From: Escherichia coli
GTDB taxonomy: Bacteria > Pseudomonadota > Gammaproteobacteria > Enterobacterales > Enterobacteriaceae
Length of the DNA: 64,000 nucleotides
Assembly: GCF_045037415.1 (NCBI RefSeq)
Contig: NZ_CP173438.1
Strand: one strand, 5' to 3'
In this document: piece by piece, positions 24,340-24,416 of the stretch
How positions within the stretch are numbered: the stretch's first letter is position 1
Layout of the letters: every line of letters starts with the position of its first letter
The notes under the pieces: generated by a model
Database searches by the model: none
What the model was told of the DNA's origin: nothing
Seen by the model: only the letters and a program-made list of their open reading frames with translations
Made by a program: the position numbers and the translations under genes

Positions 24340-24375
24340 AAAAAAATGCCCGCTCCGGCGATCCCAGAGCGGGCA
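24340..24375 (-). terminator. rho-independent terminator of the flgKL transcript
   Basis: Stem gcccgctc/gagcgggc (24348-24374) preceded on the plus strand by a 7-nt A-run, i.e. hairpin plus U-run on the minus-strand transcript. Confidence 0.8.
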
Positions 24376-24416
24376 GACAAAACATACCCAGTTTCATGAT
24401 ATGTTTTAAAGCGAGC

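Follow-up and report, generated by a model that had tools for sequence, protein, structure and literature searches.

The interval 24340..24417 on the minus strand of the window (the whole 64 kb stretch of E. coli DNA that was analyzed) is the FlgO small RNA of this strain, an assignment to which we give a probability of about 95%. FlgO is already known, having been published and annotated in E. coli K-12, and there is no new feature here. The curated RefSeq record of K-12 MG1655 (NC_000913.3) lists the ncRNA flgO (b4826, "small RNA FlgO") at 1140986..1141063; it runs from the final base of the flgL stop through the terminator U-run. A pairwise alignment of 24340-24417(-) with K-12 flgO was gapless over the full length and contained 73 identities in 78 positions. 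The same K-12 coordinates are listed by Bar et al. 2021 (PMC8175672), and the published flgO cloning primer, which begins ATTTCGCTTTAAAACATATCATG, starts at the K-12 5' end (PMC10578931).

FlgO at the flgL locus

The sequence-only reading of this DNA had described a short, defined 3' UTR of about 77 nt behind a flgL stop at 24417. The TAA codon occupies 24419-24417 on the minus strand, and 24416 to 24340 indeed makes 77 nt. It had further described a strong terminator with a hairpin at 24348-24374 and a U-run to 24340. These coordinates proved to be exact: the core GCCCGCUC...GAGCGGGC lies at 24374-24348, and a terminator scan extended it to a 12-pair stem (24375-24347) that is followed by TTTTTTT at 24346-24340. 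The proposal that a FlgO-like 3'-UTR-derived sRNA would map to this site is borne out by the annotation of K-12 flgO at the homologous position, with 73/78 nt in common. Finally, the reading had pointed to a sigma-28-dependent, Hfq-binding sRNA from flgL, and such an RNA has been published for K-12, where it disappears in a fliA mutant and is recovered together with Hfq (PMC10578931).

That RNA is one of four sigma-28-dependent UTR-derived sRNAs (Melamed et al., eLife 2023, PMC10578931). On Northern blots of K-12 it appears as a doublet of ~75 nt, which is strongly reduced or lost in the fliA mutant. Co-immunoprecipitation with Hfq enriches it strongly, to the fourth place among the RNAs enriched with Hfq. 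A 5'-phosphate-dependent exonuclease depletes the FlgO signal, and the RNA is therefore considered to be processed from the mRNA (PMC10578931). In this particular strain, expression and Hfq binding of FlgO would be expected from its sequence.

The flgL gene is convergent to rne, with a gap of 194 bp between the two (Table 1). Both gene names were taken from the annotation of 100%-identical E. coli genomes, and a 361-nt query across the interval had matches in 5,425 of 5,426 complete E. coli genomes. After the flgL stop, the minus strand reads GCUCGCUUUAAAACAUAUCAUGAAACUGGGUAUGUUUUGUCUGCCCGCUCUGGGAUCGCCGGAGCGGGCAUUUUUUU. On the other strand, rne has an intrinsic terminator of its own at 24241-24264(+), with a tail to 24268 (AAGCCCTGG...CCAGGGCTT, then TTTT-A-TTT), so that flgL and rne do not share a terminator. 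The rne terminator and the FlgO terminator are separated by an AT-rich spacer of ~71 bp (24269-24339), which is well conserved and differs from K-12 at 3 positions.

Table 1. Positions of FlgO, its parts and its neighbors in the window
Feature	Position	Strand	Basis
FlgO sRNA, 78 nt	24340..24417	-	Homology to K-12 flgO b4826; 5' end on last stop-codon base, 3' end at end of U-run
5' leader, first ~8 nt variable between species, leading into U-tract	24409..24417	-	<0.2 bit at alignment columns 7-13
U-tract immediately before stem-loop 1; candidate RNase E site (G-C|U-U-U) or Hfq contact	24408..24410	-	Alignment columns 15-16
Stem-loop 1, conserved 9-bp core (11 bp in this sequence, 24408-24378)	24380..24406	-	Single-sequence fold, RNAalifold
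GAAACUGG, near-invariant apical-loop motif of stem-loop 1; last G pairs and closes the loop	24388..24395	-	Alignment columns 31-38
U-rich linker UGUCU between the hairpins	24375..24379	-	U at columns 48, 50 and 52, 82-92% conserved
Intrinsic terminator hairpin, 12 bp in this allele (9 G-C), loop of 5	24347..24375	-	Terminator scan
Run of 7 U, transcript 3' end, predicted Hfq proximal-face site	24340..24346	-	Sequence; invariant in 65/65 aligned sequences
flgL CDS including TAA stop, 317 aa, host gene of the sRNA	24417..25370	-	ORF list; flgL annotated in 100%-identical genomes
flgK CDS, 547 aa, first gene of the parent mRNA	25382..27025	-	ORF list; flgK annotated at homologous position in K-12 and SK1144
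rne	21037..24222	+	ORF list; rne annotated in 100%-identical genomes
Sigma-28 (FliA) promoter motif of the flgKL operon, TCAAGTCC-N11-GCCGATAA	27059..27085	-	flgJ-flgK intergenic; motif match

An Rfam 15 scan of 23900-24900 with permissive thresholds returned no family above its gathering score, only sub-threshold chance matches; the best of these on the interval, anti-hemB (E = 0.1), scored 19 bits, and its gathering score is 49.5. Strain SK1144 has exactly this allele, and FlgO is unmarked in its PGAP annotation; across our searches of E. coli genomes flgL was the only feature annotated on the interval. Since neither Rfam 15 nor the PGAP annotation of SK1144 marks it, FlgO appears to be unannotated, and its locus probably looks empty in most genomes. 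A covariance model (R1) built from 65 orthologs, the window sequence among them, found a single match in the window, 24340-24419(-), with 82.5 bits and an E-value of about 7e-17. FlgO is thus present in one copy in the window, and it is also present in one copy in 5,424 of the 5,426 E. coli genomes. Five of the flgL/FlgO matches were to sequences with a plasmid label, and among the 5,426 genomes there were 2-3 without any match.

Structure, conservation and distribution

The 77-nt RNA folds to a predicted -34.5 kcal/mol, compared with -17.7 +/- 2.7 kcal/mol for 200 dinucleotide shuffles, none of which was as good (z = -6.3). The fold consists of two hairpins, an internal stem-loop and the terminator with its U-tail, and the same fold was obtained for the K-12 RNA. 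The internal hairpin (11 bp, 24408-24378), which lies between the stop codon and the terminator, is not mentioned in the sequence-only reading.

Both helices were recovered by RNAalifold from an alignment of 65 sequences (A2, MAFFT) that had been built without structural input, and compensatory double changes were found at 13 of the 18 pairs. Stem-loop 1 accounts for eight of them, with compensatory changes at 8/9 pairs and 97.0% of cells paired. In the terminator core that is conserved across species (24374-24366 paired with 24356-24348), 5/9 pairs show such changes and 97.5% of cells are paired. Overall, 97.3% of cells are paired, compared with 26-57% when the partners are slid by 1-3 columns. 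The number of double-change cells is 90, compared with 19 +/- 4 in shuffles, and none of 500 shuffles reached the observed value on any of five measures. Because the slid-partner and shuffle controls remain far below the observed pairing, we conclude that both helices are under selection for pairing.

The alignment also shows which unpaired residues are conserved. The UU at 24409-24408, directly in front of stem-loop 1, is 94-98% conserved (1.65-1.88 bits). In the loop G-A-A-A-C-U-G-G, the top base has a frequency of 92-98% at every position except the U (82%), while the surrounding stem varies with compensation. Conservation extends to the linker's U residues, to the terminator base (GCCC/GGGC) and to the U-tail. 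Hfq contacts 3' U-tails, and the sequence features for Hfq binding that are present in the window are the 7-U tail, the U-rich linker and the GC-rich terminator. The terminator loop (alignment columns 62-73, window 24365-24357) is lineage-specific: in most genera it has 8-10 nt and ends in a conserved ACCCC, and in Escherichia it reads GAUCG or GAUCGCC, with the stem extended to 12 bp. FlgO was detected by RIL-seq in EPEC and Salmonella as well, and one of its loops has been noted to differ in S. Typhimurium (PMC10578931). The lineage difference in the terminator loop may be the one mentioned there for Salmonella.

We scanned for FlgL in one genome per species and obtained 69 loci, 68 after removal of one contaminant. 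Behind the flgL stop, 63 of these 68 loci have a FlgO-like element, with a length between 71 and 83 nt in all but one of them. It is thus found downstream of flgL in 63 further enterobacterial species representatives, from genera including Escherichia, Citrobacter, Kluyvera, Atlantibacter, Cedecea, Kosakonia, Leclercia, Lelliottia, Trabulsiella, Franconibacter, Silvania, Dryocola and Pluralibacter, among others. Downstream of flgL in three Pseudocitrobacter loci (L019, L020, L023) and two Hafnia loci (L060, L061) the element was absent, also by covariance-model search; some lineages with flgL must therefore have lost FlgO or replaced it. The Pseudocitrobacter loci have an unrelated hairpin, GGCCGGA...TCCGGCC, directly 3' of the flgL stop codon. 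The species scan yielded no Salmonella locus. It was based on six exact peptide patterns derived from E. coli FlgL, and these six peptides are evidently absent from Salmonella FlgL, which explains this outcome.

A few loci of the scan deserve separate mention. In Intestinirhabdus alba, a GC-rich, palindrome-containing insertion of ~61 nt (GGCCGCCCGGCAGGGC...GCGGCGGGATAACGCCGCC, L024:3454-3514) separates the flgL stop from FlgO, which is otherwise intact (81 bits with model R1). If FlgO is made in this species, its processing site cannot be at the stop codon. The locus that was removed (L070, NZ_VHIM01000044.1, labelled Arthrobacter agilis DSM 20550) is a tiny contig of 280 nt and very low coverage that encodes the last 30 FlgL residues, followed by 78 nt identical to the K-12 FlgO allele. 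We take this, with near certainty, as contamination of an actinobacterial assembly by E. coli K-12 DNA. Another locus, labelled Chryseobacterium sp. 18061 (L039, CACSKA010000011.1), has an enterobacterial flgL with 73% identity to the query, and its FlgO element is nearly the same as the one in Citrobacter sp. 18056 (L040) from the same study, which points to mislabelling or cross-contamination.

Within E. coli, the window allele is the same as K-12 FlgO in genomic position, in its length of 78 nt, in the two-hairpin fold and in the sigma-28 motif upstream of flgK, but differs from it by five substitutions. Two of them change UU to GC at nt 2-3 (24416-24415), which removes a stop-proximal A-A|U-U-U motif. 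The other three lie in the terminator stem and turn G-U pairs of K-12 into Watson-Crick pairs (U-G to C-G, U-G to U-A and G-U to G-C), giving a terminator that is predicted to be more stable; the predicted fold energy goes from -28.5 kcal/mol in K-12 to -34.5 kcal/mol in the window, with the same structure. Of the 5,426 complete genomes, about 594 have exactly the window allele and about 1,593 exactly that of K-12. When the rankings were sampled at even intervals, 25 of 40 rows matched the 5' end of the window allele, and 6 of 10 rows failed to match that of K-12. GC at nt 2-3 is also found in Escherichia sp. E1V33, E. whittamii and E. albertii. From these ranking samples and the GC in other Escherichia species, we estimate roughly that the GC type seems to be commoner than UU in E. 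coli and is probably the ancestral form.

Promoter, processing and the 5' end

The sigma-28 consensus is TAAAGTTT-N11-GCCGATAA. A search of the whole 64 kb for this pattern, allowing up to 3 mismatches, gave only two matches, at 27059-27085(-) and at 35203-35229(+). The first lies upstream of flgK and suggests sigma-28 control of the parent operon. The second is a near-perfect motif (TAAAGATT-N11-GCCGATAA, 1 mismatch) in the flgA-flgM gap; the flgM start codon (35273) follows 44 nt downstream, and the motif is the expected late promoter of flgMN.

Some sRNAs of this kind have promoters of their own within the upstream gene. The UhpU promoter lies inside uhpT, which counts in favor of such an origin for FlgO, that is, of a primary transcript that starts near the end of flgL and is not processed. 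There is a further precedent in MotR, whose promoter lies inside the upstream CDS flhC (PMC10578931), and FlgO does start with an A. However, a sigma-28 motif with up to 3 mismatches was not found inside flgL, where the only near -10 box (GCGGATAA, 24706-24713) is located ~290 nt upstream of FlgO. A motif scan of 23900-25500 found no sigma-70-like site either, and what lies upstream of the 5' end is flgL coding sequence. The depletion of FlgO by the 5'-phosphate-dependent exonuclease (PMC10578931) also speaks against an own promoter, which we regard as very improbable. The pattern of promoter motifs would fit an RNA that is cut from the flgKL transcript.

The biogenesis model that we consider well supported is the following. 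Late in flagellar assembly, the sigma-28 promoter in front of flgK would give rise to the flgKL mRNA, and transcription would stop at the intrinsic terminator (24375-24340). An endonuclease cut at or just after the flgL stop codon would then release a 3' fragment of ~70-78 nt, which Hfq binding would stabilize. This fragment would consist of a short leader, a conserved 9-11-bp hairpin whose loop is GAAACUGG, the U-rich linker, and the terminator hairpin plus 7-U tail, which is the layout of an Hfq-binding sRNA. The promoter motif in this model comes from the present analysis and termination from the conserved structure, while cleavage near the stop codon and stabilization by Hfq were shown in K-12 by others.

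The consensus for RNase E cleavage is R-N|W-U-U. Counted from the last base of the stop codon, K-12 has RNase E-like motifs at +1 and +7, while the window has only the one at +7 (G-C|U-U-U at 24410), because the GC substitution at nt 2-3 destroys the first. Two such sites, ~6 nt apart, would fit the published doublet, and this strain may have another 5' end than the one annotated in K-12. A strict R-N|W-U-U motif adjoins the hairpin in only little over half of the species, and its role as the processing site is a suggestion. The processing enzyme would presumably be RNase E; the nuclease is not named in PMC10578931. NAD capping of FlgO was also considered and dropped: in the NudC paper, FlgO appears only in a list of differentially expressed sRNAs, and evidence for a cap is not given.

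Possible roles of FlgO

In the library that was searched, no paper was found in which a function is attributed to FlgO, and a role in trans is putative. Our best guess is that the invariant loop would make a sequence-specific contact with an RNA or protein partner while the 3' module would hold Hfq. Combined with the allele data, this gives a joint reading that we put forward as possible and quite tentative: the GAAACUGG loop would be a sequence-specific docking site, and the UU at nt 2-3 of K-12 would be a derived state that creates an extra, stop-proximal RNase E-type site. We propose the docking site because the loop is nearly constant across roughly twenty enterobacterial genera while its stem co-varies. 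A constant loop on a co-varying stem favors a contact that depends on sequence over a hairpin that is merely protective.

The latter would be the role of the structure if FlgO acted only in cis. The two hairpins would then terminate flgKL before antisense transcription runs into rne and would shield the 3' end of the mRNA against exonucleases, and the ~75-nt RNA would be a stable decay remnant that sticks to Hfq by its U-tail, with nothing further to it. Several observations agree with this. Overexpression of FlgO left flagella number and motility unchanged, and its set of RIL-seq partners was the smallest and least reproducible among the four sRNAs (PMC10578931). The convergent rne is just 194 bp away, and a covarying structure is equally expected of a terminator and a protective hairpin. 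On the other hand, a protective hairpin needs a stem and not a given loop, yet GAAACUGG is 92-98% conserved (82% at the U). FlgO also ranks fourth among Hfq-enriched RNAs (PMC10578931), and rne has its own terminator at 24241-24264(+). We regard a role in cis only as unlikely.

The strong Hfq binding, together with the very few partners, led the authors of the K-12 study to suggest that FlgO may titrate Hfq or recruit other proteins (PMC10578931). As an Hfq sponge, FlgO would accumulate late, occupy Hfq and alter the activity of other sRNAs in this way, itself pairing with no target. The conserved 3' module, with its U-rich linker, GC-rich terminator and at least 7 U, is what Hfq would need for this. 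A titrator would, however, be expected to show an effect when overproduced, and plasmid overexpression had no detectable effect on flagella or motility (PMC10578931). Titration also leaves the conserved loop sequence unexplained, and we consider it rather improbable.

Among processed 3'-UTR sRNAs, it is common that the intrinsic terminator of the mRNA is shared, that cleavage occurs near the stop codon and that expression follows the parent promoter. CpxQ is a processed 3'-UTR-derived Hfq sRNA of this kind, and others are GadF, MalH and NarS (see Bar et al., above). Such sRNAs have a defined single-stranded seed and validated targets, whereas the best conserved unpaired sequence of FlgO is a hairpin loop, and FlgO has no validated target (PMC10578931). 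A closer relative in origin is FliX from the fliC 3' UTR, which like FlgO is processed from a late flagellar 3' UTR, binds Hfq and depends on fliA. Unlike FlgO, FliX is ~200 nt long (FliX-S ~100 nt) and contains a REP element. Its targets, fliC and ribosomal protein mRNAs, have been demonstrated, and it lowers flagella number and motility (PMC10578931).

The published RIL-seq partners of FlgO are gatC, found in 4 conditions, followed by msrB, the ptsG 5' UTR, ptsH and others. The ptsG 5' UTR lies in the window (7536-7645). Its duplex energy with FlgO, calculated with intramolecular structure ignored, did not differ significantly from that of shuffled FlgO sequences, 7.6% of which did equally well (p about 0.08). 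The loop sequence UGAAACUGG has no exact complement in the window except on the antisense strand of FlgO itself. Matches to the loop complement CCAGTTTCA with one mismatch numbered 31 in the window, compared with 15 +/- 4 in dinucleotide shuffles, which ignore codon usage. This excess is likely due to codon usage (AAA and CTG being common codons) and not to targeting.

The conserved loop could also be read as coding sequence, since an AUG in the loop of stem-loop 1 (24397-24395) opens a frame for a small protein, MKLGMFCLPALGSPERAFFCLFCIVG, and NUG precedes AAA in many species. Yet the first codon base varies freely (A, U, G or C), and Kluyvera has UGG. Many Citrobacter have a 1-nt indel at alignment column 45 that changes the reading frame. 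In the sRNA this frame stays open to the end of the terminator and has no stop codon, there is no Shine-Dalgarno sequence, and 2 of the 4 differences from K-12 that fall in the frame would alter an amino acid. We rejected this small ORF on conservation and give it a negligible probability.

As FlgO is already in the literature and in the annotation of the reference genome, its identification here has no weight as a discovery. The 65-sequence alignment and the covariance model R1 would nevertheless fill the annotation gap. Among the sigma-28-dependent sRNAs, FlgO is the one without a known function, and the conservation pattern marks the loop, not the leader, as the part to mutate. Moreover, the natural alleles differ at the presumed processing site and thus offer a ready-made test of 5'-end formation. 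If the joint reading of loop and alleles is true, the doublet described in the literature may be peculiar to one lineage, and in most E. coli, including this strain, the main product may be a shorter species of ~71 nt.
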